This document shows positions 5,068 through 29,894 of a stretch of 64,000 bases of DNA, piece by piece. Origin of the DNA: an uncultured bacterium (lineage in GTDB: Bacteria > Hydrogenedentota > Hydrogenedentia > Hydrogenedentales > CAILVY01); assembly GCA_937951485.1 (NCBI GenBank), contig CALEDJ010000015.1:45311-109310 (forward strand), read 5' to 3'. How positions within the stretch are numbered: position 1 is the stretch's first letter; every line of letters starts with the position of its first letter. The translations under genes were made by a program, and so were the position numbers. The notes beneath the pieces were generated by a model, which saw only the letters and a list, made by a program, of their open reading frames with translations, did no database searches and was not told the DNA's origin.

Positions 5068-5070
5068 ACC

Positions 5071-7002: not shown

Positions 7003-7099
7003 ACGTGGCCGGCGCCTGGCGCGCCTGGCCGCTCGAGCGCGGCGGCGGTAAGGCTGCGGGGCGGTGAGCAAAATCAACCGTGGCGAGTGGAGATATCTT

Positions 7100-7930: not shown

Positions 7931-7932
7931 CC

Positions 7933-8265: not shown

Positions 8266-8306
8266 CCGTTGCCGGGGGGCGCCGCGCATGATTTGGGAGA
8301 CTGGAG

Positions 8307-8945
8307 ATGCCCATTCCCGTCAAACAGGAAAACTACCGGATTGCCGTCAGCCAAGGCTTCGAGCAGGCCGGCGCACGGCCGGCCCCGGCCCTGGAGGCCC
8401 TGGGCGCAGAGATATGCGGCGACGGCCGATTCAGGCTGCCCGTGTTGAACAGCGTGTTCACCGTTGATCTTCCCGGCCGGGACATCTCTTTTTCCACGCC
8501 GACGCCCGAGGGGACATCCAGCGGCAGCGTGGGTGTCATGTGGCAGATTCTGGCGTTGCACTATCTCTGCGGCGATATTCCCCGGAACGATGGTTTCCGG
8601 TGGGTTTCATTTGCGGATTTCCAGGAGATTCGGGGATATCAGAGCGTGTACCAGGGGCGCGTGATCTCCCGGTTCTGCGCCACCGCCGGGCGGTCTATCG
8701 AGCAGTTCCAGCAGGCCGGGGAACGACACGGCGGCGCGCCGCTGCGGTTGGGGGATGCGGCGTATCATTTCCAAGTTTTTCCGAGATCGCCGCTCCGGGT
8801 GGTCTGGTACGCGGGCGACGGCGAATTGCCGGCGGGCGCCACCATCTTGTATCCGGACAACATTCTGACGATACTACCCTTGGAAGATGTAATCGTGCTG
8901 TCTGAAGGCCTGGTGAGCCGGCTTCAGGGAAAAGGATGGCTCTGA
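8307..8945 (+). CDS. Hypothetical protein, possibly DUF3786-type (a family that recurs in acs clusters)
   Basis: 212-aa ORF with a GGAGACTGGAG RBS, co-oriented between acsE and folD. The family assignment is from memory of the domain pattern only. Confidence 0.4.
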   Translation: MPIPVKQENYRIAVSQGFEQAGARPAPALEALGAEICGDGRFRLPVLNSVFTVDLPGRDISFSTPTPEGTSSGSVGVMWQILALHYLCGDIPRNDGFRWVSFADFQEIRGYQSVYQGRVISRFCATAGRSIEQFQQAGERHGGAPLRLGDAAYHFQVFPRSPLRVVWYAGDGELPAGATILYPDNILTILPLEDVIVLSEGLVSRLQGKGWL

Positions 8946-9938: not shown

Positions 9939-10206
9939 TCTGCCATTTTGCTTGTTTTCGCGCTTTCGCGCAACCCGGGATTGCGTGTGCAGCATCATGC
10001 CCCTGCATCGTGCTTCAGCGGCAAGGCATGCGGGCGACTGATCTTGGCAATCCGGCATGTAATCGGCCATTTTGTGGCTAATTTGACAAAGTTATTTGTC
10101 ATATTGACAATTGACGATTGAGAGGCTGATCGATTTCCGGGGGGCAGGCGTGGGGGCGATCTCATATTTTTTGAAAACAGGCTTTATTTATTGACTGATT
10201 GGGGTC

Positions 10207-10235
10207 TTGACATTTGTTTCTTGATCTGCTATTAT
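10207..10235 (+). promoter_or_regulatory. sigma70-type promoter of groESL (TTGACA-N17-TATTAT)
   Basis: Perfect -35 TTGACA at 10207-10212 and -10 TATTAT at 10230-10235 with a 17-nt spacer, about 130 nt upstream of groES. Confidence 0.5.
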
Positions 10236-10367
10236 CCATTGCATCTATCGAGTGCTAACAGGCCGATGGACAAAAAAAGTTCTGTCAAAATGGCGCGGAA
10301 ATGCCGCAGTGATGCTTCCGCGCACGCAGCATACAAGCCAACAACAACCAAAAAAGGAGAGGAAGCG

Positions 10368-12331
<1,964 letters not shown>

Positions 12332-12388
12332 GCCTGGGGATCATGCGATCCCCCGCGTTCGCGTCAAGCGAACGCTGCACATAAATGG

Positions 12389-12433
12389 CAGGGCCCGTCC
12401 CGCGACAATCGCGGGGCGGCCCTGTGCTTTTTA
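12389..12433 (+). terminator. Rho-independent terminator after groEL
   Basis: GC-rich inverted repeat CAGGGCCCGTCCCGCG-ACAAT-CGCGGGGCGGCCCTG followed by TGCTTTTTA. Confidence 0.6.
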
Positions 12434-12808
12434 CGCGGGACGGGAAAAGAACCGATAGATCGGAAAAGTCGAAGGGAGAAAAAGGACGAAAGGGACGAAA
12501 GGGACATCATAATCACTTCGTTGATGGCGTATACCCTCTCTGAGAACGAATTTGGAACGGTTCCTTGCCGGAAATCAGCATGGCGGGCGAGGAGCGATTG
12601 GACATGAAGAAGTCAGATGGCGAAGCGATGATGATTGCGGGTGAACCCCGGGAATCCCGGGGCGGCGATGACGGGAATGGCGGCGGTGGTCGTATGCGCG
12701 AGATGGGAGAGATTGCAATTGTGGGGTTGATGCTCGCGTGTGCTGGGGATGTTATTGCCAGTCATTATCACGGGAAGCAACATATAAATAATACAGGGGA
12801 ATGAGACT

Positions 12809-13648
12809 TCACGCCTCGGGCCTGCCGTGTTTTGCCTTGCGGGTTTTGTGCACGCGGCCTTTGGTGGCGGCGCGCATGGCAACGCGGACAAGGCATGGGC
12901 ATAGCCGGTTGATAAACACGGAGAGTTTGCCCATGCGGGTGATGATGATTTCGGGTTTTCGGCGGTAAATGCCGCGAACTATCTGGCGCGCGGCTTTTTC
13001 GGCGGACATGACGAGGAACTGGGGAACGGGGTCGGGCTTGCCGGTGTATTCGCCGCGGTTGTTGATGCTGCGAATCTCGCTGTTGACAAAGCCGGGATTG
13101 ACGCAGGTGACGGACACGCCGAGGTCGGCGAGGTCGTGGTAGAGACACTCGGCGAATCCGACGACGGCGAATTTGCTGCTGGTGTATGGCGCGGAGGCGG
13201 GTGTGGCGACGCGGCCGGAAACGCTGCCGATGACTGCGAAGCGGCCCTTGGACCGGAGGAGATGCGGCAGGGTCGCGTAGAAGGTGTCAATCACGCCGAA
13301 GACATTGGTCTCGAACTGTCGCCGGAAGTCTTCGGTTTCCAGCGCGGTGGCCACGCCGGTGACGCCGAATCCGGCGTTGGCGATCACGACATCCAATCCG
13401 CCGAAGACCTCGACGGCCTTCGCGACGGCGGCATCCAGGCTTTCGCGGCGGGTGACATCGCATTCCAGCGCCAAGGCGCGCCCGCCCATGGCCTCGATGT
13501 CGCGGGCCAACGCCTCCAGGCGGTCTTTGCGCCGCGCGGCCAACGCGAGGACCGCGCCTTCCCGCGCGAATTCGCGCGCAGCCGCCGCGCCGATGCCCGA
13601 CGAGGCCCCCGTGATGAAAACTGTCTTGCCTGCAAAGCGACCCGCCAT
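12809..13648 (-). CDS. Short-chain dehydrogenase/reductase (SDR) family oxidoreductase
   Basis: TGASSGIG Rossmann motif near the N-terminus, NAG motif and YxxxK catalytic pair (PYTSSK). AAAGGAGG RBS before the ATG at 13648. Confidence 0.8.
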   Translation of the reverse strand: MAGRFAGKTVFITGASSGIGAAAAREFAREGAVLALAARRKDRLEALARDIEAMGGRALALECDVTRRESLDAAVAKAVEVFGGLDVVIANAGFGVTGVATALETEDFRRQFETNVFGVIDTFYATLPHLLRSKGRFAVIGSVSGRVATPASAPYTSSKFAVVGFAECLYHDLADLGVSVTCVNPGFVNSEIRSINNRGEYTGKPDPVPQFLVMSAEKAARQIVRGIYRRKPEIIITRMGKLSVFINRLCPCLVRVAMRAATKGRVHKTRKAKHGRPEA

Positions 13649-13756
13649 GGCCGTATCCTCCTTTATTGATGCTGATTTATTCGCAGCGTTTCCATTGCAC
13701 AAATCAGAATGGCACAGCAAGCACAAAACAACCGCCGGTCGTCATCATGTCTTCCA

Positions 13757-15073
13757 TCAAGGAAGGACTTTCACGTTCTTTTCGCCGTCCCCGAACCACG
13801 GCACGGTGTATGACGCCGAGGGCATGCAGTAGCAGGTCGGATCGGCGACGCCCGTCTCCCGGAGTTCTGCGCGCGCCAGCGCGAGCGCGGCGTCCAGCGA
13901 TGCCGCTTTGCGCGCGCCGATCAGGGCGACGTCTTTGTCGCTCAGATCGGTGACCAGTATGGTTTTTGGGGCTTTCTCGATGGTGGAAAGGGCGGTCTGG
14001 CCGTTTATCTCGGCATGCTTGCGCAATTCGGCGAAAATGGCATCGCGGGTCTTGAGGGCCAGCCATTGGCCGAACCTGTCAGCGCCAAGCCCCTCCGGTG
14101 CGGGGGCAAGCAGGACGATCCGTCCTTGGGGAGTTGCGGCCAGGGAGGCGTTGAACAGTGCCTTGTGCGACTGGAGGAAATTCGCCGCATCGCCCGCCGA
14201 CGCGATCACGAGGTCGGCGCGGCGGCGGATGGGTGCGGCGTAACACTCCCAGGCGAAGCGCGCGGCGGCGCGGTGCGCGGCGTCCATTTCCCCCGCGAAA
14301 ATCCCGGCGATTTCGCCGCGGCGGTTCAAGACGGTGTTGATGATGCCATCGGCCTTGCACAGTTGCGCCGCTTCGAGCATGTCTTCCGCCACGGGGTTGC
14401 CGTCGAGCACGCCGATGCGCACTGCGGGATTAAGGCGGTTCTCGGCGGAGTCCAGATTGAGCGCATGGTTGTGCGCGATGGTGGCTGCGCCCGCCAGGCC
14501 GGGCAGCAACGCCTTGCGGCCGCCGCCGAACCCTGCAAAATAGTGCAGCACGACGCTCCCTGTCAGGATCACCCGGTCGCAGTCATAGACCCGCTGATTG
14601 ATCCAGACCGGCGTGCCGCGCCGGGTCTCGCCCACGTATATCAGGCCCGCCTCATCCTGCGGGTCATGCACGAGGCACTGCGACTGGAAGCGCGCAAAAA
14701 GGTCGGCGCCCGCGATGCGCGCCTGTTCCCCTTGCGTCGGAGGCCGATGCGTTCCGGTCGCGAAAGCAAACAGGATATCTTCCTCGGCGATGCCCGCCTG
14801 GGACAAGTCGTCGAGAACGAACGGCAGCAATTGGTCCATGCCGGTATGCCGGAAAGCGTCGGAGAGGACGATCGCCACGGTTTCACCGGGTCGAAAGGAT
14901 TTCCATATGCCCGACGAAAGGCCGATGGGCTGATCGACGGCGCGGCGATAGGCCGTCTGCAGGTCGTTCAGTCCCGGAACATCGGCAATGTCCAATGTTC
15001 CCAGGGACTGTCCCCAGTCCATCTCTGCTTCCATCACGGAATTGCCGTAGGGCATGACAACGCGGATAGCCAT
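13757..15073 (-). CDS. LarA-family protein (nickel-pincer-nucleotide-dependent lactate racemase-like; DUF2088)
   Basis: N-terminus MAIRVVMPYGNS...DQPIGL resembles the LarA N-terminal domain, and there is a HYFAGFGGGRK motif. No larBCE genes nearby. Confidence 0.65.
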   Translation of the reverse strand: MAIRVVMPYGNSVMEAEMDWGQSLGTLDIADVPGLNDLQTAYRRAVDQPIGLSSGIWKSFRPGETVAIVLSDAFRHTGMDQLLPFVLDDLSQAGIAEEDILFAFATGTHRPPTQGEQARIAGADLFARFQSQCLVHDPQDEAGLIYVGETRRGTPVWINQRVYDCDRVILTGSVVLHYFAGFGGGRKALLPGLAGAATIAHNHALNLDSAENRLNPAVRIGVLDGNPVAEDMLEAAQLCKADGIINTVLNRRGEIAGIFAGEMDAAHRAAARFAWECYAAPIRRRADLVIASAGDAANFLQSHKALFNASLAATPQGRIVLLAPAPEGLGADRFGQWLALKTRDAIFAELRKHAEINGQTALSTIEKAPKTILVTDLSDKDVALIGARKAASLDAALALARAELRETGVADPTCYCMPSASYTVPWFGDGEKNVKVLP

Positions 15074-15296
15074 CTTTGTACCACCATTGAGACATTTGCG
15101 AAATGACGTTTCGGACCTCAATGCCATCAAAAATCCCGGATATTCGTGTTCTTAAGCGCAGAAAGAGTCCATTTCGCAAATGCGTCACCATTCAATCACA
15201 TGGTCCGTGCAAGGGGCGTATTGTCTCCGTCGGTGCGGCTCGAATCAAGTGAAAAACGCCCGGCGGAAATCTGGAGCACGCGTGTGACATCCGCCG

Positions 15297-16046
15297 TCAC
15301 CACTCGAAATCGTCGTTACCCGTGGTTGGCGCTTCGTTGCGATGGATTTGACAGACCGTCCATATGGCGGCAAATACAAAGCAATCCACCACGGAGAGCG
15401 CCGCATCGAGAAGCGTTCGCGCAAGAATGATTTCGAGCGCGGGGGGCGCGGCGCTCAAGGATGCCGCGCGCGATATGACAAACTGGCCGAAATTGATCAG
15501 CAGCACGACCCAAACCAGCGCGAAGCGGCGCCCGATTGGCGCCAGAATGCTCCCGATCTCGCGCCACTCCAAGGCGCCGTAGAACATGATGCAGGCCCCT
15601 GCCGGCACGGCGAAGCAATAGGCCAGCATCAGGCAGAATTCCAACAGCATGACCAGGTCCGGCATGTCGAGCATCGCCGTGCGCAGTTGTATCCGGGCCA
15701 GCGCCAGGATGCCCAGATTGATGATGAACCAGGGGAGAAAGAAGCGCCGCAGGGCCTCAGCGGGGCCGGCGCACTTCCACAACGGCCGGTCCATTTCGCG
15801 GCCCATTACCGAAAACACAATTGCCTGAAGGGCGGCGTAAAGACCGGCCAAGGTCAAGTCCATCACCAGGGATACCGTATAGACCCATAAGGGGATGACA
15901 TCGTCGCCGGTGTAATCGCTGAGGAAGAATCCTCCGAAGCGAAAAGCGAGGCTCATCGCCGCGACAGCAGTCATATAGGCCATTGCCGTCGCGCGATTGC
16001 GACGCAGTTCTTCCAGCGTTTCTGTCAACAGTCGAGCAATATTCAT
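15297..16046 (-). CDS. Hypothetical polytopic membrane protein
   Basis: About 6 predicted TM helices. The ATG overlaps the stop of the upstream PilZ gene in an ATGA coupling. Confidence 0.5.
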   Translation of the reverse strand: MNIARLLTETLEELRRNRATAMAYMTAVAAMSLAFRFGGFFLSDYTGDDVIPLWVYTVSLVMDLTLAGLYAALQAIVFSVMGREMDRPLWKCAGPAEALRRFFLPWFIINLGILALARIQLRTAMLDMPDLVMLLEFCLMLAYCFAVPAGACIMFYGALEWREIGSILAPIGRRFALVWVVLLINFGQFVISRAASLSAAPPALEIILARTLLDAALSVVDCFVFAAIWTVCQIHRNEAPTTGNDDFEW

Positions 16047-17140
16047 GCTGTGTGAACAGGGTGATCGTTGTCTTCATGCCGCAGGGTCGGTTGGTGCTGC
16101 ATGACGTAATGGGTGATGCGCTCCTGGTCGTCTTCAGGAAGGCCCACAAAGGCGGCGCGCACCAGATGCCTGTCTGCCGAAATCGGCGTCGTCTCAACAA
16201 TGCGCGCCGTCACCAGCACCGGGTCCACACCTGGCCCGAGTCGTATTTTGGTGCGCAGGAGCACCTGCTTGGGCACCGGCTGCGGCAGCACCGCTGCAAA
16301 GCCCCCGCCGCTGAGGCTGGTGATTTGCCCCCGGAACCTTGTCACTGCTTCGCGTTTGTCCAAATCCGAATAATCCCCGTCCACCGGCGCGTTCAGTACG
16401 GCAATGTCCTCAACCTGGTGGATGCGTATTCGGTAATGCGCCCGGGACTGCAATCGGATGAGTTCCGTGGCATGCTCAAAAACCCATTCGGGCGGGTCAG
16501 ACTCCCGCCGCAGGAAACGGGCCGAAAAGCGGTAACGCGCGTCTTCATCGCGCCACACGCGGCATTGCAACATCGTGTCCGGGGCCGGCACCGGCACGTC
16601 ATGCCCGGCGTGCGGCGTCAACCGGAACTGCGCCTCATCCACGCCCGCCACCTTCATCCGATGCCACCGCAATGCGCCGCCCGTGCCGTGCGCAATCCAG
16701 ACCGGCTGCCCGCGCTGCAATTCCCGCGTCGAAAAAATCCGTTGACCATAGGGTACGTGGTCAAGCCCCAAATGGGCGCGGATATCGCGAAGAAAGGCGC
16801 CCCGGGCTTCATAGTCCGCAGTATTGGCAGCCCGTGACGCGAGGTCCTCGTCAACACACCGATCGAACTCCCTGCGCACTGTCAGCACCTGCAAGGGCGT
16901 TTTCGGCGCGAAACGGCGGATCAAATCAAACAGTTCCCTGCGCGCATCGTCGGACAGCCCCTTCTCATCAGCGATTTCGCGCACCCGTTCCCAATCCGCT
17001 TCCACACGCATGCGATCTTCGCGGCGCCGCCGGAATACATCCAGCACCACGGCGAGGCCGAACAAACCAATCACCGCCGCCCCCGCCCACATCAGATGCG
17101 TGATGGTGGGCACCGCCAAGAATATCCCTAATTCAGCCAC
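16043..17140 (-). CDS. Membrane-anchored PilZ-domain (c-di-GMP binding, YcgR-like) protein
   Basis: N-terminal TM segment. C-terminal PilZ signature RAHYRIRI....GQITSLSGGGFAAV (RxxxR ... DxSxxG). GTG start with a GGAGG RBS. Confidence 0.6.
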   Translation of the reverse strand: MAELGIFLAVPTITHLMWAGAAVIGLFGLAVVLDVFRRRREDRMRVEADWERVREIADEKGLSDDARRELFDLIRRFAPKTPLQVLTVRREFDRCVDEDLASRAANTADYEARGAFLRDIRAHLGLDHVPYGQRIFSTRELQRGQPVWIAHGTGGALRWHRMKVAGVDEAQFRLTPHAGHDVPVPAPDTMLQCRVWRDEDARYRFSARFLRRESDPPEWVFEHATELIRLQSRAHYRIRIHQVEDIAVLNAPVDGDYSDLDKREAVTRFRGQITSLSGGGFAAVLPQPVPKQVLLRTKIRLGPGVDPVLVTARIVETTPISADRHLVRAAFVGLPEDDQERITHYVMQHQPTLRHEDNDHPVHTA

Positions 17141-17554
17141 GGTTTTCAGGGCCTCCGGTATCTGGACGCATTATAGGCGCTTATTTCCAAGTGATGCAAT
17201 CAGGTGCGCGCCGGACGGTTCAATGCGGCCGGACATGGACTCACACGGACCGCGAATATCCGACACCTGGGGATGCAAAAGGCCGTATAGTGCGCCCCGA
17301 TGATCCATGCCATTCTACGTACGTATTACTGCTATTTTTTTCAGCCGCATTCCTGTCAAGCGCGGCCGTGGATTCCAGCCGGAAGCGCTCCTGAAAACGG
17401 TGTTGTCAACCCTATTGACGCTGCAAGACGTTTGTGCTACAACTTAGCCGATTTCCCCGACAGCAGCATGCCGGAATACCGGCTTGCCATCCGAATAAAG
17501 AGGAATTTGCCTGAACGCGCCGAATCGTTTCGGCAATCATAAGGACCGCCTTTC

Positions 17555-19507
17555 ATGGCCAAGAAAACCGAGCCTCCGTCATCCGCGCCCCGCACCTTAG
17601 GCCCCGTGCCCGACTTGGAGCGGCATCTTCCGTCCGAATGGTGGCGTACGCTGTTTCGCTCGATCTACCTGAAAACCGACGGGGATATCGTGGAGAATGA
17701 ACGGAACACCCGCAAAGACGTTGACATGCTGATCCAGGCGACAGGGATAGAGCCGAACGACCGTATTCTGGACCTCTGTTGCGGCCAAGGACGGCATTGC
17801 CTGGAACTGGCGCGCCGGGGTTTCAAGAATGTCGTCGGCATTGACCGTTCCCGCTACCTGGTGCGTCTGGCGCGCAAGCGCGCCACAGAACTGGGGCTGC
17901 GCGTGTCTTTTCACGAGGGTGATGCGCGCCGCTTCCGCCTGCCCGAAAATTCCTTTCAGTGCGTGGCCATTCTCGGCAATTCCTTCGGCTATTTCGACCG
18001 CCTCGAAGACGACCTCGCCGTACTCGAATCGGTGAAGCGCGTGCTGAGGTCCGGCGGATCGATCGCTCTGGACGTGGCGAACGGGGAATGGATTCGCCAC
18101 AACTTCGAGCGCCGGTCCTGGGAATGGATTGACGAGAATCAATTCGTGTGCCGGGAGCGATCGCTTTCAGCCGACGGTCAGCGTCTCATCTCCCGCGAAG
18201 TGGTCGTTCACGCCGAGCGCGGCGTCATCGTGGACCAGTTCTACGCGGAGCGTCTCTATTCCCAGGAAATGCTGCAAAACCTGTTGACACAGGCGGGTTT
18301 CGACACCATCCGCGTGCACGGCTTCCCGGAATCCGAATCCGGGCGCAACCAGGACCTCGGCATGATGGCCAGCCGGATATTCGTCACAGCACGCATCACC
18401 AAACGCCCGGCGCCCTCCCGCCGGGGCAAACCCCTTTATCCGCGAATCGCCGTCATCATGGGCGACCCCACCCTGCCGGATTCGGTGAAGCGCGACGGTC
18501 AGTTCAACGCCGAGGACCTCGATACGATTGACCGGCTCAAGCGCGCGCTTGCCGAACTGGATGATTATTCGTTTACCTACCTGGATCAACATTCAAACCT
18601 GATCCCGCGACTGAAATCCGAACTTCCGGAATTTGTTTTCAATCTCTGCGACGAGGGCTACAACAACGACGCTTTCCTGGAATTGCATGTGCCCGCCTAT
18701 CTCGACATGCTCGGCATCCCCTATACGGGCGCGGGGCCGTCCTGCCTCGGTCTGTGCTACAACAAGGCGCTCGTGCGCTCCGTCGCAGCGGGACTGGACA
18801 TTCCCGTGCCGCTGGAAACCTACTTCGATCCCGACGACCAATCGGCCACCCTGCCGTCCACCTTCCCCGCGCTGATCAAGCCAAATTTCGGCGACAGCAG
18901 CATCGGCATCACCATCAATTCGGTGGTGCAAACCCCTCAGGAACTGCTTTCGTACATGCGCCGTCTCCAGGAAACGCTTCCAGGCCGTCCCATCCTGATC
19001 CAGGAATTTCTGGAAGGGCCGGAGTACAGTATCGGCATCATCGGCAACCCTGGCCAGAGGGTCATCTATCTGCCGCCGCTGGAAGTGGATTACAGCGGCC
19101 TGCAAAGCGGGCTGCCGAAAATCCTCGGTTATGAATCCAAGTGGCTCCCGGATTCCCCCTACTGGACCCAGATCAGTTATCACGAGGCGCAACTGGACGA
19201 AGACACGTTGCGCAAACTGCAAGACTATTCCATGCAACTTTTTACGCGACTCGGTTGCCGCGACTATGCCCGCTTCGATTTCCGCGCCGACAATAACGGC
19301 GAGATCAAACTGCTCGAGGTCAACCCCAATCCCGGATGGTGCTGGGACGGCAAGTTCAACATTATGGCCGGCTTCGCCGGCATGCGCTATGCCGACATGC
19401 TCCGGCTTATCATTGAAGCGGCCCAGGAGCGCGTGGCCGCGCAGGCGCCCTCAGGAAATGGCGCCCCGGCGCACGTCGCCCGATACAGCGCGACGGATTG
19501 TGTTTGA
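17555..19507 (+). CDS. Fusion protein: class I SAM-dependent methyltransferase (N-terminal) plus ATP-grasp ligase (D-Ala-D-Ala ligase-like, C-terminal)
   Basis: Residues about 60-190: ILDLCCGQGRHCLELARRGFKNVVGIDRS...FHEGDARRF (methyltransferase motifs I-III). Residues about 330-640: ATP-grasp A/B/C subdomains (GIPYTGAGP...ILIQEFLEGPEYSIGIIG...KLLEVNPNPGW). Confidence 0.7.
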   Translation: MAKKTEPPSSAPRTLGPVPDLERHLPSEWWRTLFRSIYLKTDGDIVENERNTRKDVDMLIQATGIEPNDRILDLCCGQGRHCLELARRGFKNVVGIDRSRYLVRLARKRATELGLRVSFHEGDARRFRLPENSFQCVAILGNSFGYFDRLEDDLAVLESVKRVLRSGGSIALDVANGEWIRHNFERRSWEWIDENQFVCRERSLSADGQRLISREVVVHAERGVIVDQFYAERLYSQEMLQNLLTQAGFDTIRVHGFPESESGRNQDLGMMASRIFVTARITKRPAPSRRGKPLYPRIAVIMGDPTLPDSVKRDGQFNAEDLDTIDRLKRALAELDDYSFTYLDQHSNLIPRLKSELPEFVFNLCDEGYNNDAFLELHVPAYLDMLGIPYTGAGPSCLGLCYNKALVRSVAAGLDIPVPLETYFDPDDQSATLPSTFPALIKPNFGDSSIGITINSVVQTPQELLSYMRRLQETLPGRPILIQEFLEGPEYSIGIIGNPGQRVIYLPPLEVDYSGLQSGLPKILGYESKWLPDSPYWTQISYHEAQLDEDTLRKLQDYSMQLFTRLGCRDYARFDFRADNNGEIKLLEVNPNPGWCWDGKFNIMAGFAGMRYADMLRLIIEAAQERVAAQAPSGNGAPAHVARYSATDCV

Positions 19508-19588
19508 TTTTGCGTCCGGATTGGGTTATCCTCTTTCGAGAGAAAACTTAGGGGGTGTCTGTCAGAGACAGCCACAAGGCATGACGCG

Positions 19589-20599
19589 ATGACGCAAGAA
19601 AAGGGGCATGGGGATCGCAAACTGGAAACGCTTTCATATCTCCCGATTCCTGTAGCCTCGCTGCGCGCGGACACCGTCACCAATTTCGACCTCTATCTTC
19701 CCTCCCATGACGGACGCACGCCGGTGCTCTATCGCGACGGGGTTTTTCCCATCACGACAGCCCTTCTGGATCGGCTCCGCGTCGGCAAGGTGGAGACCCT
19801 GCTGGTAAAGTCAACCGATGAGGAGAATTACCGCCACTACCTGGAGTCCAATCTCGGATCCCTGGTGGCTGATGAGAACATGCCGCTGGAAGAGCGTTCC
19901 GCGTTGCTCTATGACTCCGCCCGAAACCTGGTGCGGGACGTGCTGAGGGACCCGCGCGCGGGAAATGTGTTGCGACGCAGCGAGGAAGTCGTGTCGCACA
20001 TGGTTCGCTTCCTCTTTGCCGACAAACAGGCCTTCTACCATCTCATTCAAGTAACTTCGTACGACTATTACACATACACGCACAGCGTCAATGTGTTCGT
20101 TTTCAATATTGCTTTGGCGGCGCGGCTCGGCGTGCGGGAAGAGGACCTGCACGACTTCGGCCAGGGCGCCCTTTTGCACGACATCGGCAAAAGCAAAATA
20201 GATCCCAATGTGCTCAACAATCCGGGGAAACTCAGTCCGGACCAATGGCGCATCATCAAAATGCATCCTATCTTCGGTGATCAGTTGTTGCTGGAACAGG
20301 GCTGCAAAAGCGAGATCGTTATTGATATCGTGCGCCACCACCACGAGAAACTCTGCGGCGGTGGTTATCCGGACAACCTCTCCGGCGACGACATTTCCGC
20401 CTGGGTCCGCATTTCCACCATCTCCGACATCTTCGATGCGCTCACCACCCGGCGTCCTTACAAGGCGGCGCTGGACAGTTACCACAGCCTCCGGCTCATG
20501 CAGGAGGAAATGTCAGAGGAACTCGACCCTGATTTTTTCCTCGCCTTCGTTGAAATGATGGGCAACATCGAGCGCCCGCGACACCCCGGGAGAAAATAA
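19589..20599 (+). CDS. HD-GYP domain c-di-GMP phosphodiesterase
   Basis: HDIGK metal-binding motif and the GGGYP variant of the GYP motif; 336 aa. Confidence 0.8.
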   Translation: MTQEKGHGDRKLETLSYLPIPVASLRADTVTNFDLYLPSHDGRTPVLYRDGVFPITTALLDRLRVGKVETLLVKSTDEENYRHYLESNLGSLVADENMPLEERSALLYDSARNLVRDVLRDPRAGNVLRRSEEVVSHMVRFLFADKQAFYHLIQVTSYDYYTYTHSVNVFVFNIALAARLGVREEDLHDFGQGALLHDIGKSKIDPNVLNNPGKLSPDQWRIIKMHPIFGDQLLLEQGCKSEIVIDIVRHHHEKLCGGGYPDNLSGDDISAWVRISTISDIFDALTTRRPYKAALDSYHSLRLMQEEMSEELDPDFFLAFVEMMGNIERPRHPGRK

Positions 20600-20606
20600 C
20601 GCGAAC

Positions 20607-23600
20607 TCAGGGAGCGGGGGGCGCGCAGTGATTACGCGGGCGCGAAGCGCCGCTGCCGAGGGCAATCATGGAACCGAAAAAATCGCGTACCCATGCCTGC
20701 GCATCGTCCACGATGGTGTACACAATGGGCACGACGAAGAGGGTGAGGAATGTGCCGGCGCAGAGACCGCCGACGAGGGCGCGCCCCAGCCCGGTGACCG
20801 CGCCGCCGGTCGCGCCGCGCCCGACGGCAAGCGGCAGGATGCAGAAGACGGTGGTGAGGGTGGTCATCAGGACGGGCCGCAGGCGGTTGTGGCCGCCCTG
20901 GAGCACTGCCTGGGCGCGCTCAAGCCCCTGTCGCCGCAGTTGGTTGATGTGGTCAATGATGACGATGCCGTTGTTGACGATGATGCCGCACATGATGATG
21001 GAACCGACGAGGGAGATGGTGTCCATCTGCTTTCCGGTGAGGTACATGACCCAGTACACGCCGGAAAAGGCCATGGGGACGGTGGTGAGCACGGAGAGTG
21101 GCAACAGCCACGATTCAAAAAGGGCTGCCATCACGAGATAGATCAGGATGATCGACATGGCGAGCGTCTTGGAGAAATTGGCCAGGGTTTCGTCCATGGC
21201 CCGCAGTTCGTCGTCCAATTCGATGGAATAACCGCGCGGGAGATCGAATCGGGCGATCAGGGCGCGGAGGCTGTCGCGCACCTGAATCAGGTTCTCGCTG
21301 TTCACCCGCCCGTAGAGTCGCAGGGAACTTTTCGCGTTGACGCGGTCTATGCGCGGCGGGGTCTCGCCTTTGTGCAGGCTGACCAGTTGCATGAGCGGCA
21401 CCAGGCGTCCGTCGCCGCCTTGCACCGCCATTGTTTCCAAATCGCCCACGTTGCCCTTCTGGGTCCAGGGCAACTGCCCGCGTACGGCGATTTCCTGTCC
21501 GCCCCTTTTCATGTAAGGGAGGTTTGCGCCGCGCAGCGCAAAATCCACCGTGCGTGCGATGAGCATCGGCGATACGCCCGCAGCGGCGGCGCGTTCCTTC
21601 TCGATGTGCAGTTGGATTTCGTCTTTTTCGTCGGGTCGATCGGATTTCACATCCGAAAGTTCCGGCAGGGTCGCCATGGCCTCCATAAATCGCCCGGCGA
21701 TTTCGTGCAGGGTTCTGGTGTCGTCGCCGCGCATGAGCACGCCGATGCTCCGCCCGCCCTCGGGGCGCACCTCGGACACGCCGTAGTCAATCCGCGCGCC
21801 GGGCAGCCGGGCGGGCAGCCGTTCCGCCAGGAATTTTCGCGCCTCGTCCGTGCTGCAGGGCAGCGTGGCGCCGGGCGGCAGATCGTCTTCTTTCACAAGA
21901 TACATCGTGATAACGCCCCCCCAGCCGCCCGAATTCACGTAGATATTGGTGATGCCGAGTTCTTCCCGGTAGGCTTCGATGCGGGACACGAGCATGTCCA
22001 CGGTCTCGCGGACATTGTCCTGTCCATAGTTCTGGTCCACGTTGAGCCGCACGCTGAACTGGCGCATGTCGAGTTGCGGCAAACCCTGAAAACCGGTGCG
22101 CTGATAGGGGAGATAATAACTGGCAAGGAGGAGCGCCAGGGTCAGCGCGATAACAACGGGCCGATGCCGGATCGCCAGCGCCATCGCCGCATCGTAGATT
22201 TTCCAGAGGGCATCCATCACGCCGAAATGGGGCAGACGCGGGCGAAACCGTTTCCGGCGTTCTCCGGATGGGGCGGTGGCGCGCGGCCTTTGCGCGCGCC
22301 CGTCATAACTCTCCGCGAGGGGAATGATCGTCAGGGCGATCACGAGGCTTGCCGTCAATGAGGTGGTGATAGGCCCGGCGAACTCCCGCATGATGGTGGA
22401 CAGTTCGCCCGATTCCAGGTAGAACACCGGAATAAACACCACCACCGTTGTCAAGGTTGACGCGGAGATCGCCATGCTCACCTCCGTCGCCCCGCGCTGC
22501 GCATTCATCGCCCGGTCGCCGCCGATCATGCGTCGGCGATGAATGTTCTCGATAACGACGATGGTATTGTCCACCAACATGCCCATGGAAATGACCAACG
22601 CAGCAAGGGTGACGAGGTTCAGGGTCTGGCCGGAAAAGTAGATGTAAATCACGGCGACCACGATGGAGGCGGGAATCGCCAGCGAAACCAGGATGGTCGG
22701 GCGGATGCGGCGCAGAAAGAGCCACAGCACAATCACCGCCATGGCGCAGCCGTATTTTCCGGCGTTGTATAGAGAACTCAGCGCAAAACGGATGATTTCC
22801 GACTGATCCTCGAAAACGAACACCTCGACGTCGTGGAATTCGGGGTCCTCGCGCATGCGCGCCAACTCTGCATGCACCGCGTCGCAGGTGGCCACAGCGT
22901 TGGCGTCCGGTTCCTTGATGATGCGCACAAACACGCCGCGCTTGCCGTCAATCTGAAATTGTTCCGCGCCCGAAGGCCCCTGGACCGAAACATTCGCCAC
23001 GTCTCTGAGGCGGATGCCGGACGGTGTGATGATGGCCATTTCCAGTTCGTCGGGATCACTGAATTCCTCGTTCAGGCGCACGAAGTAGCGCATCTCCCCC
23101 TGTTGTAACTGGCCCACGCCGATGTTGATGCTGGCGGCGTGCAACGCCTGCACCACCTGATAGACGCTCAATCCAAGGCTGAGCAGCGCGTGCTGGTTGA
23201 ATTCCACATAGACCGATTCACTCGGCGTTCCGCTGATCTCCACATCTGCGACGCCGTCCAGACGCATCAACTGCCGCCGCAGATGCGTACGCGCATAAAG
23301 CGCAAGATCGTCCCCGCGTTCCTCGCGGAACAACGCCAGGCGCATGATCGGAATGCTCAGGCTGCTGAAGCGGCGCAGGAGGAGGGTGTCCACATCGGCG
23401 GGCAGTTTCAGGCGGAGCCGCTCGATGCGATCGCGCGCCTCCGCGCTCGCCAGTTTCATGTCCGTATCCCAGGTGAACTCCATCCAGATGTAACATCCGC
23501 CGCTATCCGAATTGCTGGAAATCCGGCGCAGCCCCGGAATCGTCTTGAATTCGCCCTCGGCGGGAATCGCCACTTCATGCTCCACCTGCTCCGGCGTGGC

Positions 23601-24475: not shown

Positions 24476-24838
24476 CGTCTCATTCCTCCTTCAGTCTGAA
24501 ATTCCTGCCCTTAATGATCACACTTAAATCGCACGACTTTATTCTACTACCTCACGCCCTTCCATTTCAAGAATGATTATACATGAAAAGTGACCAAAAG
24601 TCCAGTACTTTTTCTGCCCCCGGGGAATAAATCCGTAAATTGTTCCAAGTTGCGTTCTGTCAAGCATTTATGCAAGATAGTCCAAGGAAGATGGAACACC
24701 AAACGGCACTTATGGCGGGCCTTTTTCGTCCCGCAAGAGATAAAATACACTCCTCCATCAGGTTGTCCGGCATAACAAATTCGGCCATAATCCTATTCCG
24801 AAAAGGTGTTGCGTCAGGCGCGGTCCCCGTGGGAAGGG

Positions 24839-27133
24839 ATGTTAAGTTTGACCATGAAAATACTTTCAAATGCCGACAGACGCGCGCATGATTCCCATGT
24901 CGTTGAAAACGGTATTTCTCGTCGCGTTCAGGGCCTTTTATGTATTGCCTTAATCACAGGATTAACAGTTCGTATTATTTATCTGCTTCACTCGTTTTAC
25001 TGTCCTGATTTTGCCTCCCCTGTCCTCGACCCGCGCCTGAACGATTATTGGGCACGCGCACTGGTGACGGGCAACTGGACGCCGCCGGTCTATGCGGACG
25101 ACCCGGAAATCTGCACGACGCCGTATGGCCGTCCTCCGGGTTATCCGTACTTGCTCGCGGTGGTTTATGCGCTGTTCGATGGATCCTATCTTGCGCCGCG
25201 CCTGGCACAGTTGGGATTGGGGCTGGTAAACGTCGCGCTCGCATTTGCATTGGGTCGGCGTATTTTCGGCAATGCGGCGGGCATTGTCGCAGCGGGGATA
25301 CTGGCGGTGTATTGGCCGCTGGTTTATTTTGAAATGGAATTGAACTATCCGGTGGTGGTTGTATTCCTGACATTGTTGACCCTGCTTTGCTGCCAGCGGT
25401 GGGTTCATCATCCAACGTTGCGAATGGCCGCCGGGATTGGTGCGATCATTGGCTGTTTCGCGCTGATCCGGCCCAACGTGCTGCTGTCAGGAATTACACT
25501 GGCCGCATGGATGATCTGGGCGGGCCGGCGTCGCGCCATGCCGTGGCGCAAAGCGTTGATCAACGCGTTCGCGCTGCTGGCGGCGTGCGGGGCGCTGATC
25601 ACGCCTGCCGTTGTGCGCAATTACGTGGTATCCAAAGAGTGGGTGCTTATTTCATATTATGACGGCGTAAACATTTATATCGGCAACAATCCGCAGTCCC
25701 GTGGCGATTCGGCGCGGATTCCTGATTTGCGCGACATCTCCGGCCTGGATGCCTGGGACTGTTTCAGTTATCCCATGCTTGTTCGAAATCTTGGGCGAAA
25801 GATGGATGGCCCGGATTTCGGTTTCTCAGATGCTTCGCGGTATTTCCGCCGGCGCGCCGCCGCGTTCGTCTGGGAAGAACCATTTACCGCACTACGGCTG
25901 ACGGTCCGAAAGGCGCTCTTATTCTGGGGGCCAATAGAGGTCTCCGACAGCAAGGTAATGGAATTGGACCGCCAAGCCAGCCCATTGCTTCGTTGGCTTC
26001 CCGGATTTCCGTCGGTATTCGCGGCGGCCTTGCTCGGTGCGCTTCTGTGGAGACGTAACGCACGACGTTCCGGCAGCCAAGAACCAGACCGCACACGGGA
26101 TGCTTTCCTGGAATGCGTGGCGTTCCTGGTGCTGTTCGCCGTGTCCTATTTTTTCTCCATCCTGCCCTTCTTCATTGCCGGACGTTACCGGATTCCAGTA
26201 GTGCCGATTCTGGCGGTCTTCGCCGGATATGGGCTGGTTGCGACGGGCGCGGCCTGGCGTACGGGAGACTATCGGCGTGGCGCGCTTTCGTCGGCGTTGT
26301 TGGCGCTGCTCTACATCGCATGCGCCACGCCGTTTGCGTCGTATTTGCCGGATGCCGCGACCTGGCATCTGCGGCGGGCGCAGGCGCACATGCAGGCTCA
26401 CCGTGACGGAGAAGCCCTGCAGGAACTGGCATCTGCGCTGCGCGAAGACGATATGAATATAGAGGCGCATGTGTTGACGGGATTTCTATTGGACCGCGCT
26501 GGAGATATCGAGGCCGCGATAGCCCAGTACCGTCGAGCGCTGGAGATTGACCCTGACCATGTCACGGCCTGCAACAACCTCGGTCATGCCCTGGCGCGGC
26601 AGGGCGAAGCGGATGAGGCGGAGGCCCTATACCGGCGCGCGCTGCAATGGAACCCCTGGCATGCGCTGGCCTGCAATAACCTGGGGTGGTTGTCAATGGA
26701 GCATGGGCGGCTGGAAGAAGCCGTCGGTGCGTTTACCCAGGAAATCACGGCAGAACCGAACCATGCGCGGGGACACTACCACTTGGGAATCGCGCTGGCG
26801 CGGCAGGGAAAATTTGAGTTGTCCGCCGAACATCTGGAGGCGGCCCTGACGCGTGCGCCCGGGAATCCGGATATCCTCACCGACCTTGGCCTGGTGCGGG
26901 CGCGGCTGGGACAACCGGAGCAGGCCGAGCGGCGCTTCCTGGAGGCGCTGCAGCGGCGGCCTGATTTTGCCCGAGCACATTTCAATCTCGGCAATCTCTA
27001 CGGCGACCTGGGCCGCTATGAGGACGCGGCCCGGCATTTCGAAAAGACGCTTGCCATTGATCCCGATTTTGAACAGGCGCGCCAGCACCTCGAACAGGTT
27101 CGGGCGGCCATGGAAAAACCCCCGAACGATTGA
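24839..27133 (+). CDS. GT-C family (PMT/ArnT-like, GT39-type) membrane glycosyltransferase with C-terminal TPR repeats (TMTC-like architecture)
   Basis: N-terminal polytopic domain with the conserved YGRPPGYPYLLA motif and about 11 TM segments. The C-terminal roughly 330 aa hold at least 8 TPR units (AHxNLGxxLxxQG...). The start could be 24839 or 24854. Confidence 0.65.
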   Translation: MLSLTMKILSNADRRAHDSHVVENGISRRVQGLLCIALITGLTVRIIYLLHSFYCPDFASPVLDPRLNDYWARALVTGNWTPPVYADDPEICTTPYGRPPGYPYLLAVVYALFDGSYLAPRLAQLGLGLVNVALAFALGRRIFGNAAGIVAAGILAVYWPLVYFEMELNYPVVVVFLTLLTLLCCQRWVHHPTLRMAAGIGAIIGCFALIRPNVLLSGITLAAWMIWAGRRRAMPWRKALINAFALLAACGALITPAVVRNYVVSKEWVLISYYDGVNIYIGNNPQSRGDSARIPDLRDISGLDAWDCFSYPMLVRNLGRKMDGPDFGFSDASRYFRRRAAAFVWEEPFTALRLTVRKALLFWGPIEVSDSKVMELDRQASPLLRWLPGFPSVFAAALLGALLWRRNARRSGSQEPDRTRDAFLECVAFLVLFAVSYFFSILPFFIAGRYRIPVVPILAVFAGYGLVATGAAWRTGDYRRGALSSALLALLYIACATPFASYLPDAATWHLRRAQAHMQAHRDGEALQELASALREDDMNIEAHVLTGFLLDRAGDIEAAIAQYRRALEIDPDHVTACNNLGHALARQGEADEAEALYRRALQWNPWHALACNNLGWLSMEHGRLEEAVGAFTQEITAEPNHARGHYHLGIALARQGKFELSAEHLEAALTRAPGNPDILTDLGLVRARLGQPEQAERRFLEALQRRPDFARAHFNLGNLYGDLGRYEDAARHFEKTLAIDPDFEQARQHLEQVRAAMEKPPND

Positions 27134-27188: not shown

Positions 27189-29894
27189 GTGAAGGAAGCG
27201 ATACAGGAAAATACTGCGCCCGGGCGCGCCGTTGACGGGGAAAGCGCTTCAGGTGAAGAATGGCCGCGCCGTGAATGGATTTGCCTGACGGCGATTCTGG
27301 CGCTGGGGCTTTTCCTGCGGCTATGGTATTTCTCCGAACTGGTGCACGCCCCGGATTTCCGTGCGCTCCGCCAGGATCTGGATGTGCAGGATTATCAGGC
27401 GCGCGCCATGCTTTCGGGCGACTGGACGGTCCGCGACGGGGAAAACGACCCGGAAATCCCCACCACCCCCTATTACCGCCCCCCGGGCTATCCCTATTTC
27501 CTGGCCATTGTTTATTGGTTCAGCAACGGCAGTTATCTGGCGCCGCGCCTGGTGCATTTCGCGCTCGGTCTCACCACCGCCACGCTGTTGTATCTTCTGG
27601 GCAGGGCTGTTTTCAGCGGCGGCGTCGGTTTGATCGCCGCATTCCTGTACGCTACGTACTGGGGCTGCATTTACTACGAAGGCGAGGTCAATGACCCGGC
27701 GATATTTCTTTTTCTCGTCCCCTCTCTCATGCTTGTCCTGCTGCGATGGCTTCGGGCTTTTGCCGCTCGATGGGCGGCGCTTGCCGGTCTGATTATCGGC
27801 TGCTACGCCATCATGCGACCCAACATTCTCCTGTTTGGGCCGGTTCTTGCCGCATGGATGCTGTATGTCGCCTGGCGGCGACGGCAATTGCGGCGCGCGG
27901 CAAGCAGTTGGATCGCACTGGCGTTGTTGGCCGCCGCCCCCATTTTGCCGGTCACGGCGCGCAATTACGTGGTATCCGGTGAATTTGTGCCAATCTCTAC
28001 ATATTTCGGGCAGAATTTCCTTATCGGCAATGGAGAGGATTCCAACGGCTACACCTCCTGGACGCCTTACCTGCAGGAATTGGAAGGCACAGGGAACTGG
28101 TCGGTGTGGGTGTACAACAACGTGGTGCGTGGTCTGGGCAGGGAAGTGGGCAATGAAAACCTGACCCACTCGGAGGCGTCGCGCATCTTCTTCTGGAAGA
28201 CCGTGGATTTCATTCGCGAAAACAAGATGCGCACGCTGAAACTGGCGATAAAAAAAGCCGCATACTTCTGGCACCCGCTGGAAATCACCGAAAACAAGGT
28301 CGTCCAACACGAAAAGTGGCACTATGCGCCACTGAAATACCTTCCGGGTTTTCCCTGGACCATGGCGTTGTTTCTGGGCGGCAGCCTGTTTCTCACATGG
28401 GACTGGCGGCGCGGCCGCCTGCCGGGGCATTCATCATTGGATGCAACGACGGTGAAGCGCATCATCTTCATCGTCTATGCGTTTGCATTCACTTATTTCG
28501 CCTCCTTCATTCCGTTTTTCGTCAATGCCCGGTCAAGGGCGCCTTTATATGGCCTGATGCTGCTGATTGGCGCGTATGGCGTGAAGCGGCTGTGGGATTT
28601 TGCGGTTGCCCGACAATACTGCCGGATGGCGCTGGGAGCGGCTCTTTTCGGCGGAATGTTCCTGATTTCTTCGGTGCCGCTGGCGCCGTATACTCCTGAC
28701 CATGATCGCTGGCATTATGACCGCGCCGATTCATACCTTCGGGAAGGCAAAGTGGAAGAAGCGATTGCGGAGGCGCGGGCGATGATGGCGCTGCCGGAAC
28801 GGCCGATGTACTACATGCCGCACCGTCTGGGGGTGGCGTTTGTTCGATTGGGTCGCTACGAAGAGGCCGTCCCGCTGTTGCGTGCGGCGCTCAGTCCGGA
28901 ACCGGAGGAACAGGATCCCCGATACCGGCAGGATGTGCACTATCTCTTGGGGGTGGCGCTGGCAAGCACAAACCGGGACGCGGAGGCCGTGGAAGCCTAT
29001 GAAGCGGCGCTGTGGCTGAATCCGGATGACGCGCGGACGCATAACAATCTGGGGGTGATCCGCGAGAAGCAGGGCGATTTCGCCGCAGCGGAACATCACT
29101 ACCGCGAGGCGATCCGGTCTTCGCGGGAGTTTGCCCTGGCCTACAGCAATCTTGGGGACCTGTTGGGGCGAACGGCCCGCCTGGACGAAGCGATTGCGCA
29201 TCTGCGGCGCGCGGCGGAACTGGAGCCGGACAACGCGGACTACCATTACAATCTGGCGCGACATCTTGCGATGGCGGGGCGTAACGAAGAGGCTTCGGCG
29301 CACTATGAAACTGCAATTGCACTTCGACCGGAAGACCCGCGCCCCTGCAACAACCTCGGCTGGATGGCGCAGGAAGCGGGAGACCTTGCCGAGGCGGAGC
29401 GGCGCTACCGGCAGGCGGTGGAGGCGTCGCCGACTTTTACGCTGGGGTGGATCAATCTTATGCACCTGATGGTGCAGGAGGGGCGCTTGTCCGATGCCGG
29501 ACAGGTCTGCGACATCGCGATCGCCGAGGACCCGCGGAATCACGGATTAAGGTTGTCGTTTGCGGAAGTACTGGCCAGATATGATTACCAGTCAGAAGCC
29601 ATTGCGGAGTACCGCAAGGCACTGGCTTCGGAACCTGAGAATCCGGTGATCATGAACAATCTCGCCATTCTTCTGGTAGCAACAGGGCAGTGGCGGGAAG
29701 CCGAAGCCCTGTATCGCCGGGCGATCGAGTCTGATCCTGCGTACGCACCGGCGCACTGTAATCTGGGGGTACTGCTTCAGGCGCAGGGGCTCACGGAAGA
29801 CGCGATGCGGTATTTTCGCCAGGCCCTCGCGATTGATCCTGACAATGCGTTTGCGCAAAAGCGGCTGGCGACCGGAAAAGAGGAGAAGCGGTAA
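27189..29894 (+). CDS. Paralogous GT-C(PMT-like)+TPR membrane glycosyltransferase
   Basis: Same motif (YYRPPGYPYFLA) and architecture as the upstream gene, with a longer TPR tail. GTG start. Confidence 0.65.
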   Translation: MKEAIQENTAPGRAVDGESASGEEWPRREWICLTAILALGLFLRLWYFSELVHAPDFRALRQDLDVQDYQARAMLSGDWTVRDGENDPEIPTTPYYRPPGYPYFLAIVYWFSNGSYLAPRLVHFALGLTTATLLYLLGRAVFSGGVGLIAAFLYATYWGCIYYEGEVNDPAIFLFLVPSLMLVLLRWLRAFAARWAALAGLIIGCYAIMRPNILLFGPVLAAWMLYVAWRRRQLRRAASSWIALALLAAAPILPVTARNYVVSGEFVPISTYFGQNFLIGNGEDSNGYTSWTPYLQELEGTGNWSVWVYNNVVRGLGREVGNENLTHSEASRIFFWKTVDFIRENKMRTLKLAIKKAAYFWHPLEITENKVVQHEKWHYAPLKYLPGFPWTMALFLGGSLFLTWDWRRGRLPGHSSLDATTVKRIIFIVYAFAFTYFASFIPFFVNARSRAPLYGLMLLIGAYGVKRLWDFAVARQYCRMALGAALFGGMFLISSVPLAPYTPDHDRWHYDRADSYLREGKVEEAIAEARAMMALPERPMYYMPHRLGVAFVRLGRYEEAVPLLRAALSPEPEEQDPRYRQDVHYLLGVALASTNRDAEAVEAYEAALWLNPDDARTHNNLGVIREKQGDFAAAEHHYREAIRSSREFALAYSNLGDLLGRTARLDEAIAHLRRAAELEPDNADYHYNLARHLAMAGRNEEASAHYETAIALRPEDPRPCNNLGWMAQEAGDLAEAERRYRQAVEASPTFTLGWINLMHLMVQEGRLSDAGQVCDIAIAEDPRNHGLRLSFAEVLARYDYQSEAIAEYRKALASEPENPVIMNNLAILLVATGQWREAEALYRRAIESDPAYAPAHCNLGVLLQAQGLTEDAMRYFRQALAIDPDNAFAQKRLATGKEEKR

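Follow-up and report, generated by a model that had tools for sequence, protein, structure and literature searches.

Conserved fusion of an NmbA-like methyltransferase to a Ddl-like ATP-grasp ligase: a candidate synthase of N-methylated amides

Two groups of described enzymes come closest to the protein considered here. The first is NmbA, the N-methyl-bacillithiol synthase, a standalone enzyme of 266 amino acids (aa) that methylates the cysteine nitrogen of bacillithiol and co-occurs with BshA/B/C (Hammerstad et al. 2025, PMC12719100). The second comprises the ligases DdlA/DdlB and VanA (PF07478, TIGR01205), which are approximately 21-26% identical to the ligase half of our protein. Relatives of both are joined in a single 650-aa protein encoded in contig CALEDJ010000015.1 of an uncultured bacterium from Hydrogenedentota (assembly GCA_937951485.1); the analyzed stretch of 64,000 nucleotides (nt), positions 45,311 to 109,310 of this contig, is called the window below. 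This methyltransferase-ligase fusion represents an orphan bifunctional family of unusual breadth and conservation, and is not categorically new. It may be a bifunctional synthase of a small N-methylated amide resembling a dipeptide or a pseudopeptide, a reading for which we consider the chances to be evenly balanced.

The joining of a methyltransferase to a D-Ala-D-Ala-ligase-like ATP-grasp domain, claimed by an earlier note on this DNA, is borne out by both Pfam and NCBIfam. In particular, Methyltransf_25, Methyltransf_31 and Methyltransf_11 match residues 58-176 and Methyltransf_23 extends to approximately residue 250, all above the gathering scores, while Dala_Dala_lig_C covers residues 436-621 with 80 bits (cut-off 24), so that the C-terminal domain is an ATP-grasp indeed. 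The N-terminal half has motifs I-IV and the Rossmann-like seven-strand fold of class I S-adenosylmethionine (SAM) methyltransferases; its motif I loop is C-G-Q-G, a variant of the G-x-G-x-G type, and the acidic residue ending beta2 and the Asp of motif III are present (the definition of motif I is that of PMC12719100). The three-domain ATP-grasp fold and the PF07478 match assign the C-terminal half to the Ddl-like members of the ATP-grasp superfamily. Moreover, residues 336-625 align to positions 37-303 of 305 in the NCBIfam Ddl models, and since the models are covered almost end to end, a complete Ddl-type enzyme is fused here, beyond the ATP-grasp lobe. The mean predicted local distance difference test score is 65 for the linker block 281-290 and 91 and 88 for the flanking blocks (blocks of ten residues). 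Judging from the residues kept, both halves have intact catalytic machinery. A protein with 100% identity has been recorded from a contig that carries the same neighbour genes.

The impression of the earlier note that the fusion is unusual does not hold. A search of 5.8 billion proteins yielded 5,600 homologues, the best 120 of which are all full-length fusions (631-695 aa, 67-91% identity), and a survey in which each species was represented by a single genome gave at least 573 loci with a homologue of the fusion in 10 or more bacterial phyla. Planctomycetota dominate among the matches listed, which also include Hydrogenedentota, Sumerlaeota, Alpha- and Gammaproteobacteria, Myxococcota, Bacteroidota, Ignavibacteriales, Chloroflexota and Omnitrophota. 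Eukaryotic carriers are chytrids and blastoclads (Olpidium, Synchytrium, Gonapodya, Paraphysoderma, Quaeritorhiza, Polyrhizophydium, Blastocladiella) and the choanoflagellate Monosiga, where the product has 806 aa; as the gene range of 2,527 bp cannot be translated directly into 806 aa (2,418 coding nt), the Monosiga gene contains introns. When the ligase half is compared with representatives clustered at 50% identity, fusions of a methyltransferase and a ligase recur down to approximately 35% identity, and their retention at this distance, in both bacteria and eukaryotes, argues for a coupled function. The nearest relatives of the window protein are found in metagenome-assembled genomes (MAGs) of Hydrogenedentota and "Nitrospirales".

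The family is strongly conserved. Identities have a median of 65% among members from Planctomycetota, 65.6% among those from Alphaproteobacteria and 63.7% between members of different phyla, which makes a star-like pattern. The alignment of 47 family members, to which all statements on residue invariance refer, has a mean column identity of 67%, and both halves contain long stretches without any variation. Invariant in the methyltransferase half are D73, L74, C75, C76, G77, Q78, G79, R80, H81, D97, D123 and the block N142-S-F-G-Y-F147; invariant in the ligase half are K442, S449, E490, K529, R573, D575, E588, N590 and G594, and further C365, D366, E367, G368, N371, W530, C596 and the motif G-W-C-W-D-G-K.

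Our literature searches found neither a publication nor a characterised enzyme with this methyltransferase-ligase architecture, and the view of the earlier note that no well-characterised family carries it thus stands; the CysF-CysE fusion of a beta-lactone paper (PMC11427300) is different. In databases the members are named "methyltransferase domain-containing protein" or "D-alanine-D-alanine ligase" (the latter by JGI for many of them). Two members from Synchytrium endobioticum (TPX47760.1 and TPX41519.1; P0167 and P0392 in our set) are labelled "D-alanine---D-alanine ligase" in NCBI, which is likely a misannotation.

The alignment to DdlB from E. coli shows that the ligase half combines a Ddl fold and the Ddl residues for ATP, Mg2+ and phosphoryl transfer with a substrate pocket lined differently. 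K442, S449, E490, K529 and R573 correspond to DdlB K144, S150, E187, K215 and R255, while D575, E588, N590 and G594 correspond to D257, E270, N272 and G276; hence all DdlB residues contacting ATP and Mg2+ (K144, E187, K215, R255, D257, E270, N272) are kept. The substrate positions are changed, with Y216 replaced by W530, S281 by G599 and L282 by K600, and among the E15-S150-Y216 triad and the S281/L282 pair only S150 is kept in this alignment. The region near the N-terminus of the ligase was compared by hand with the DdlB sequence, which is less certain: the E15 motif, GG-x-S-x-E-x-E-V-S, is presumably replaced by G-D-P-x-L-P-D-x-V-K-R, and the H63 loop presumably by N-L-C-D-E-G-Y-N-N-D (the printed HMMER alignment to DdlB begins at DdlB residue 74, past this loop).

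Whether sequences or folds are compared, Ddl and Van ligases make up all of the best ligase matches, and this, along with the fully kept ATP/Mg2+ core, would be expected of a genuine peptidoglycan D-Ala-D-Ala ligase equipped with an accessory methyltransferase. However, the fusion ligase does not reach half of any curated Ddl cut-off in NCBIfam/TIGRFAM (112.3 bits against 243 for PRK01372, 102.2 against 245.65 for TIGR01205), the positions of Y216, S281, L282 and, by the hand comparison, the E15 motif are occupied by other residues, and fungi and choanoflagellates, which have no peptidoglycan, carry the fusion too. Moreover, no mur/dcw gene family recurs near the fusion in 80 loci from other species, for which all open reading frames (ORFs) within plus or minus 8 kb were clustered at two stringencies. 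The low scores and the presence in organisms lacking peptidoglycan exclude a bona fide D-Ala-D-Ala ligase in our view, and such a role would be most surprising.

Typing of 25 positions in 270 relatives separated two pocket classes. The Type A pocket, to which the window protein belongs, is characterized by E367, W530 and G-W-C-W, and the Type B pocket by T367, A/T530 and A-W-A-N (A594 and A596, with Asn being the commonest of several residues in position 597). Type B is that of a large standalone sister family from Alphaproteobacteria. Type A is found in 19 of the 26 representatives fused to a methyltransferase and in 19 of the 71 unfused ones (odds ratio 7.4, descriptive only), and several fused exceptions deviate from Type A by Asp instead of Glu alone; in this sense the pocket residues follow the presence of the methyltransferase, which speaks for the synthase reading. 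The additional acidic and aromatic residues of Type A would fit the recognition of a (methyl)ammonium group.

The same ligase clade contains other architectures. Among them are a 1210-aa protein with leucine-rich repeats and the ligase from a Lokiarchaeia MAG (P0159), and proteins of 637-702 aa with two Ddl-like units in tandem (architectures seen among P0236, P0244, P0246 and P0255). One standalone ligase, P0133 (338 aa, 48% identical to the window ligase half), is encoded at L086:6001-7017 and also in L087 and L088, on phage-like contigs with dozens of small co-oriented ORFs, Cpn60, MazG, DUF4326 and an Rv2179c-like exonuclease. For P0133, the matches in annotated phage genomes were only generic Ddl-like ones with approximately 25% identity, and no PHROG family matched it.

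For the METHYLTRANSFERASE half, the nearest solved structure by sequence is that of NmbA (9RI2, E-value 6.5e-25), the next methyltransferase chain in PDB being 12 orders of magnitude behind (2.4e-13). The identity to NmbA is 33.9% over 227 aligned residues, reaching into the cap, just below the 35% used by the authors of NmbA as the network threshold (PMC12719100), and the NmbA-family relationship is borderline at best. The window protein has kept NmbA residues W16, R70, H71, R175, E188, R189, R194, H203, R217 and Y219, while K198 is replaced by Arg; the shared set of arginines fits an acceptor bearing a carboxylate. The top methyltransferase-type match in NCBIfam is the daptide N-methyltransferase, and the structural neighbours of known function are mostly N-methyltransferases acting on amines of amino acids, peptides or amino sugars. 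From these relationships we infer that the methyltransferase half probably methylates a free amino group on a carboxylate-bearing acceptor.

Two further comparisons of this half should be mentioned. The 85-bit PADLOC match to Mad2 of the MADS defence system involves only residues 31-186 and positions 255-407 of the 492-position profile, and was judged to be generic similarity of the methyltransferase core; three neighbour genes that were scanned had no PADLOC match. As for a phage origin, no close homologues were found in annotated phages, and PHROGs matched the methyltransferase core only, and weakly.

The similarity to NmbA brings in a different product, that is, the fusion could be a low-molecular-weight thiol synthase whose ligase attaches cysteine or a Cys-containing unit and whose NmbA-like half N-methylates the cysteinyl amine, yielding a new N-methylated thiol in lineages without a known one. 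Attachment of cysteine could be modelled on GshF, whose ATP-grasp domain is Ddl-like, or on GshB. NmbA is the nearest characterised methyltransferase relative, cap residues included, and two invariant cysteines are placed at the ligase pocket, C596 by the DdlB alignment and C365 by the hand alignment only. The attraction of this possibility lies in the abundance of the fusion in Planctomycetota (the highest among the matches listed), as no low-molecular-weight thiol is predicted for Planctomycetes (Hiras et al.). On the other hand, the NmbA identity falls short of the 35% floor, the recurrent gene partners are of peptidase and deacylase types, and the 80 loci show no recurring redox, bsh or gsh gene close to the fusion. 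The fusion occurs also in Alphaproteobacteria, fungi and choanoflagellates, all of which use glutathione. On balance, thiol synthesis as the general function of the family is improbable.

The survey of the 80 loci yielded no family-wide neighbour: the maximum recurrence is 8 loci by clustering and 10 by tblastn, and the sole cluster recurring more often is an antisense shadow ORF of the fusion gene itself. The partners that do recur, if the loci of sister ligases and of Monosiga are considered as well, are all amide hydrolases. A zinc deacylase of the AstE/AspA family is encoded directly downstream of the fusion in 10 loci of the 80, from Planctomycetia and Phycisphaerae, and in two of these (L049 and L059) the genes overlap by 4 bp. 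In one alphaproteobacterial locus (L038) the fusion adjoins an S15/PepX_C hydrolase gene, whose product is 66-73% identical to those of the S15 genes at Type B ligase loci; there, the S15 gene is adjacent to the standalone ligase gene, or one gene away, in three loci of four. In Monosiga brevicollis, the fusion gene and a gene for a ligase/prolyl-oligopeptidase fusion are arranged head-to-head at a distance of 1.2 kb, the ligase of this oligopeptidase partner being a paralogue of a third type. The same ligase-prolyl-oligopeptidase architecture is found in another choanoflagellate, Barroeca (P0254). No second ligase paralogue and no peptidase were detected in the window by tblastn.

Two side observations concern individual loci. 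One Type B locus (L085) additionally has GNAT-DUF3335 and RLAN-RimK genes just upstream of the ligase gene. The four-gene cluster common to L039 and L041 (rimO/miaB-like and CDP-alcohol phosphatidyltransferase genes) was set aside as uninformative housekeeping synteny.

The claim that the fusion ligates and methylates a small molecule or a peptide, also made in the earlier note, is still the best general reading. By analogy with Ddl chemistry, the ligase half would use ATP to phosphorylate a carboxylate, and the resulting acyl-phosphate would be coupled to an amine. By analogy with NmbA, CypM, the daptide methyltransferase and CcbJ, the methyltransferase half would use SAM to methylate a free amino group, either that of the substrate or that of the ligation product. 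The product might then be degraded by the dedicated amide hydrolases. AstE/AspA enzymes hydrolyse amides of the N-acyl-Asp/Glu type, and such a partner, together with the arginine-rich cleft of the methyltransferase, weakly points to an acidic dipeptide-like product. A product with free carboxylates, such as an N-methyl-aminoacyl-Asp/Glu or a similar dicarboxylate conjugate, is a tentative suggestion, and rather doubtful in this specific form.

A substrate of another kind, protein or peptide, should be considered here as well. The ligase would then attach an amino acid, in a RimK-like manner, to the C-terminus or a side chain of a conserved protein or of a ribosomal peptide, the methyltransferase would methylate the N-terminal amine as CypM does, and the AstE/AspA-like enzyme, having a carboxypeptidase fold, would trim the modification. 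This agrees with the very high star-like conservation (65% identity within and 64% between phyla), with the peptide N-terminal methyltransferase CypM being a structural neighbour and the daptide methyltransferase the top NCBIfam match, with the oligopeptidases as eukaryotic partners, and with the fact that AstE/AspA-like genes accompany RimK in other bacteria. However, the ligase is specifically Ddl-like, being neither RimK- nor graspetide-like, and has no RimK (PF08443) match in Pfam, which also makes the comparison with RimK and cyanophycin synthetase drawn in the earlier note a poor one. Neither a conserved small precursor ORF nor a target gene is found nearby in the 80 loci, and NmbA, the nearest methyltransferase relative, acts on a small molecule. 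We therefore consider modification of proteins or peptides unlikely.

Several observations weigh against synthesis of an N-methylated dipeptide-like amide. Every functional step of the proposed synthase is inferred. An identity as high as approximately 64% between phyla is no less typical of enzymes that act on macromolecules. With 34% identity to NmbA the regiochemistry is not settled, and since C- and O-methyltransferases occur among the structural neighbours, O-, S- or C-methylation is possible. Among the 80 loci, 68 have no peptidase or hydrolase of the searched families within 8 kb, and no neighbour family is conserved family-wide. The pocket-type statistics rest on related sequences, some of the unfused ones being probably truncated fragments. 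Finally, the Type A ligases P0127 and P0133 have neither a fused nor an adjacent methyltransferase; a split-gene version was looked for at these two and at four unfused Type B ligases, and no adjacent methyltransferase gene was seen.

Going beyond synthesis of an N-methylated amide as such, the family and its hydrolases (AstE/AspA-type, S15, or the ligase-prolyl-oligopeptidase partner) may make and turn over a new N-methylated metabolite common to Planctomycetota, Hydrogenedentota, Sumerlaeota, some Alphaproteobacteria, zoosporic fungi and choanoflagellates. In the boldest version of this proposal, the NmbA-like domain fused to the ligase would make an N-methyl-cysteinyl conjugate that serves Planctomycetes as their missing low-molecular-weight thiol. 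This extended proposal is possible, though somewhat more probably wrong than right.

In the window, the fusion gene (Table 1) is flanked by genes of cyclic di-GMP (c-di-GMP) signalling. The earlier note had placed the fusion in a c-di-GMP neighbourhood, and the PilZ gene, the gene of its hydrophobic partner and the HD-GYP gene are present as it described; the functional link did not stand. The downstream protein is identified as HD-GYP by the motifs LHDIGK and HHEKLCGGGYP. Its gene follows the fusion gene shortly on the same strand, and no terminator-like site was found in 17000-20700, so that the two may be co-transcribed in this genome. Moreover, the divergently oriented PilZ gene (69% identity) is kept upstream in a relative whose fusion is 91% identical. 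A role in c-di-GMP signalling together with these genes would fit such an arrangement, but in the same relative an unrelated gene for a 267-aa protein replaces HD-GYP, and a 79%-identical relative has neither gene, with fumarase upstream and a GT2 glycosyltransferase downstream. Homologues of PilZ and HD-GYP are found in none and in one of the 80 loci, respectively, and the fusion protein contains no c-di-GMP-related domain according to Pfam. As the two genes are not kept near the fusion across species, their presence is local synteny and no functional neighbourhood, and a signalling role has hardly any probability. No Rfam match with E-value of at most 1 was found in 16900-19800; hence the 415-bp spacer upstream of the fusion gene contains no known riboswitch.

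Table 1. Features of the fusion gene, of its flanks and of partner loci (coordinates refer to the window unless a locus is given)
Feature	Coordinates	Strand	Remarks
Whole ORF, methyltransferase / Ddl-like ATP-grasp fusion	17555..19507	+	650 aa, ATG start
Shine-Dalgarno-like AAGGA	17541..17545	+	9 nt before ATG; read from sequence
Class I SAM methyltransferase domain, beta-strand cap, NmbA-like	17633..18397	+	approximately residues 27-281
SAM-binding motif I L72-D-L-C-C-G-Q-G79, then R80-H81	17768..17791	+	R80-H81 = NmbA R70-H71
Inter-domain linker	18398..18442	+	approximately residues 282-296; predicted without regular secondary structure
Ddl-like ATP-grasp ligase, three sub-domains, pocket Type A	18443..19450	+	approximately residues 297-632
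Family motif C365-D-E-G-Y-N-N-D372	18647..18670	+	presumed region of the Ddl H-G-x-x-G-E-D-G loop, by hand comparison
Omega-loop K529-W530	19139..19144	+	DdlB K215-Y216 by DdlB alignment
R573-F-D575	19271..19279	+	DdlB R255 / D257, catalytic Arg and Mg2+ ligand
E588-V-N590	within 19316..19354	+	DdlB E270 / N272, Mg2+ ligands
P-N-P-G594-W-C-W-D-G-K600	within 19316..19354, after E588-V-N590	+	in place of the Ddl D-Ala2 carboxylate site
PilZ protein	16043-17140	-	PF07238, 26.5 bits (Pfam)
249-aa hydrophobic protein	15297-16046	-	no family match; start overlapped by 4 nt by the PilZ stop
HD-GYP protein (HD_5/HD)	19589-20599	+	82 bp downstream of the fusion gene
Peptidase_S15 + PepX_C hydrolase (CocE/NonD type), approximately 675 aa	L082:7053-9089; L084:8071-10089; L085:8255-10285; L038:5517-7544		
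Monosiga brevicollis CH991550.1 (L094), ligase/prolyl-oligopeptidase fusion	4321-8799	-	1210 aa
Monosiga brevicollis CH991550.1 (L094), methyltransferase-ligase fusion	10001-12527	+	806 aa

Several other genes of the window deserve mention. The gene at 12809-15130 (minus strand) encodes a homologue of the LarA-type 2-hydroxyacid racemases with the nickel-pincer cofactor (Lar_N, 188 bits; the top NCBIfam match is LarAH10 with 343 bits, below the cut-off of 540), and is followed directly, on this strand, by a gene for a short-chain dehydrogenase. A gene for the beta subunit of ACS/CODH (1402-3678, plus strand; CdhC and ACS_CODH_B_C, E-value 3e-120) points to a Wood-Ljungdahl-type anaerobe. Two consecutive genes on the plus strand (24806-27133 and 27189-29894) encode large proteins with the N-terminal membrane domain PMT_2, that of dolichyl-phosphate-mannose-type glycosyltransferases, and long C-terminal TPR arrays. 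The protein encoded at 41582-43648 (plus strand) has a Schlafen group 3-type DNA/RNA helicase domain (PF09848, E-value 1e-81) and may be defence-related.

Both catalytic folds of the fusion are textbook ones, while their stable combination forms a very large conserved family in at least 10 bacterial phyla and in early-branching opisthokonts. The label "D-alanine-D-alanine ligase" given to its members can distort inventories of peptidoglycan genes, above all those of Planctomycetes and fungi. If a new N-methylated dipeptide-like metabolite or thiol is indeed made, a widespread compound and its pathway would be added to microbial metabolism, and the NmbA-type class of methyltransferases would have a second function. 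Experiments can start from the distinct pocket residues, from the hydrolase partners and from hosts that can be cultured, such as planctomycetes and Monosiga.

The fusion can be compared with the known systems one by one. Ddl enzymes have no fused methyltransferase, whereas the window enzyme is fused, lacks a cell-wall gene context, and is found also in eukaryotes. NmbA is a standalone protein of approximately 266 aa, unlike the window methyltransferase, which is the N-terminal domain of a 650-aa ligase fusion, and its cleft residues are partly changed here (W20 is replaced by Leu, and the H31/H32 region differs). CypM, the daptide methyltransferase, CcbJ and CgnL are N-methyltransferases with a beta-strand cap, like the window domain, but they belong to natural-product clusters and are not fused to ligases; the identity of the three structural neighbours among them to the window methyltransferase half is 16-21%. 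The Type B standalone ligases (e.g. P0123 from Kiloniellales) form a sister clade with 47-52% identity to the fusion ligase, sharing with it the motifs G-D-P-x-L-P-D-x-x-K-R-D, N-x-C-D-x-G, E-S-K-x-L-P-D-S-P-Y-W and E-V-N-P-N-P-x-W-x-x-D-G-K; they have no methyltransferase, are usually encoded near an S15/PepX_C hydrolase, and are likewise uncharacterised. Finally, the bifunctional N-acetylglutaminylglutamine synthase Ngg (GNAT and ATP-grasp), which makes an N-capped dipeptide osmolyte, is a conceptual analogue only: in both cases an N-modifying transferase is fused to an ATP-grasp ligase, that of Ngg forming a dipeptide, but the N-modifying domain of Ngg is an acetyltransferase, while that of the window fusion is a methyltransferase.

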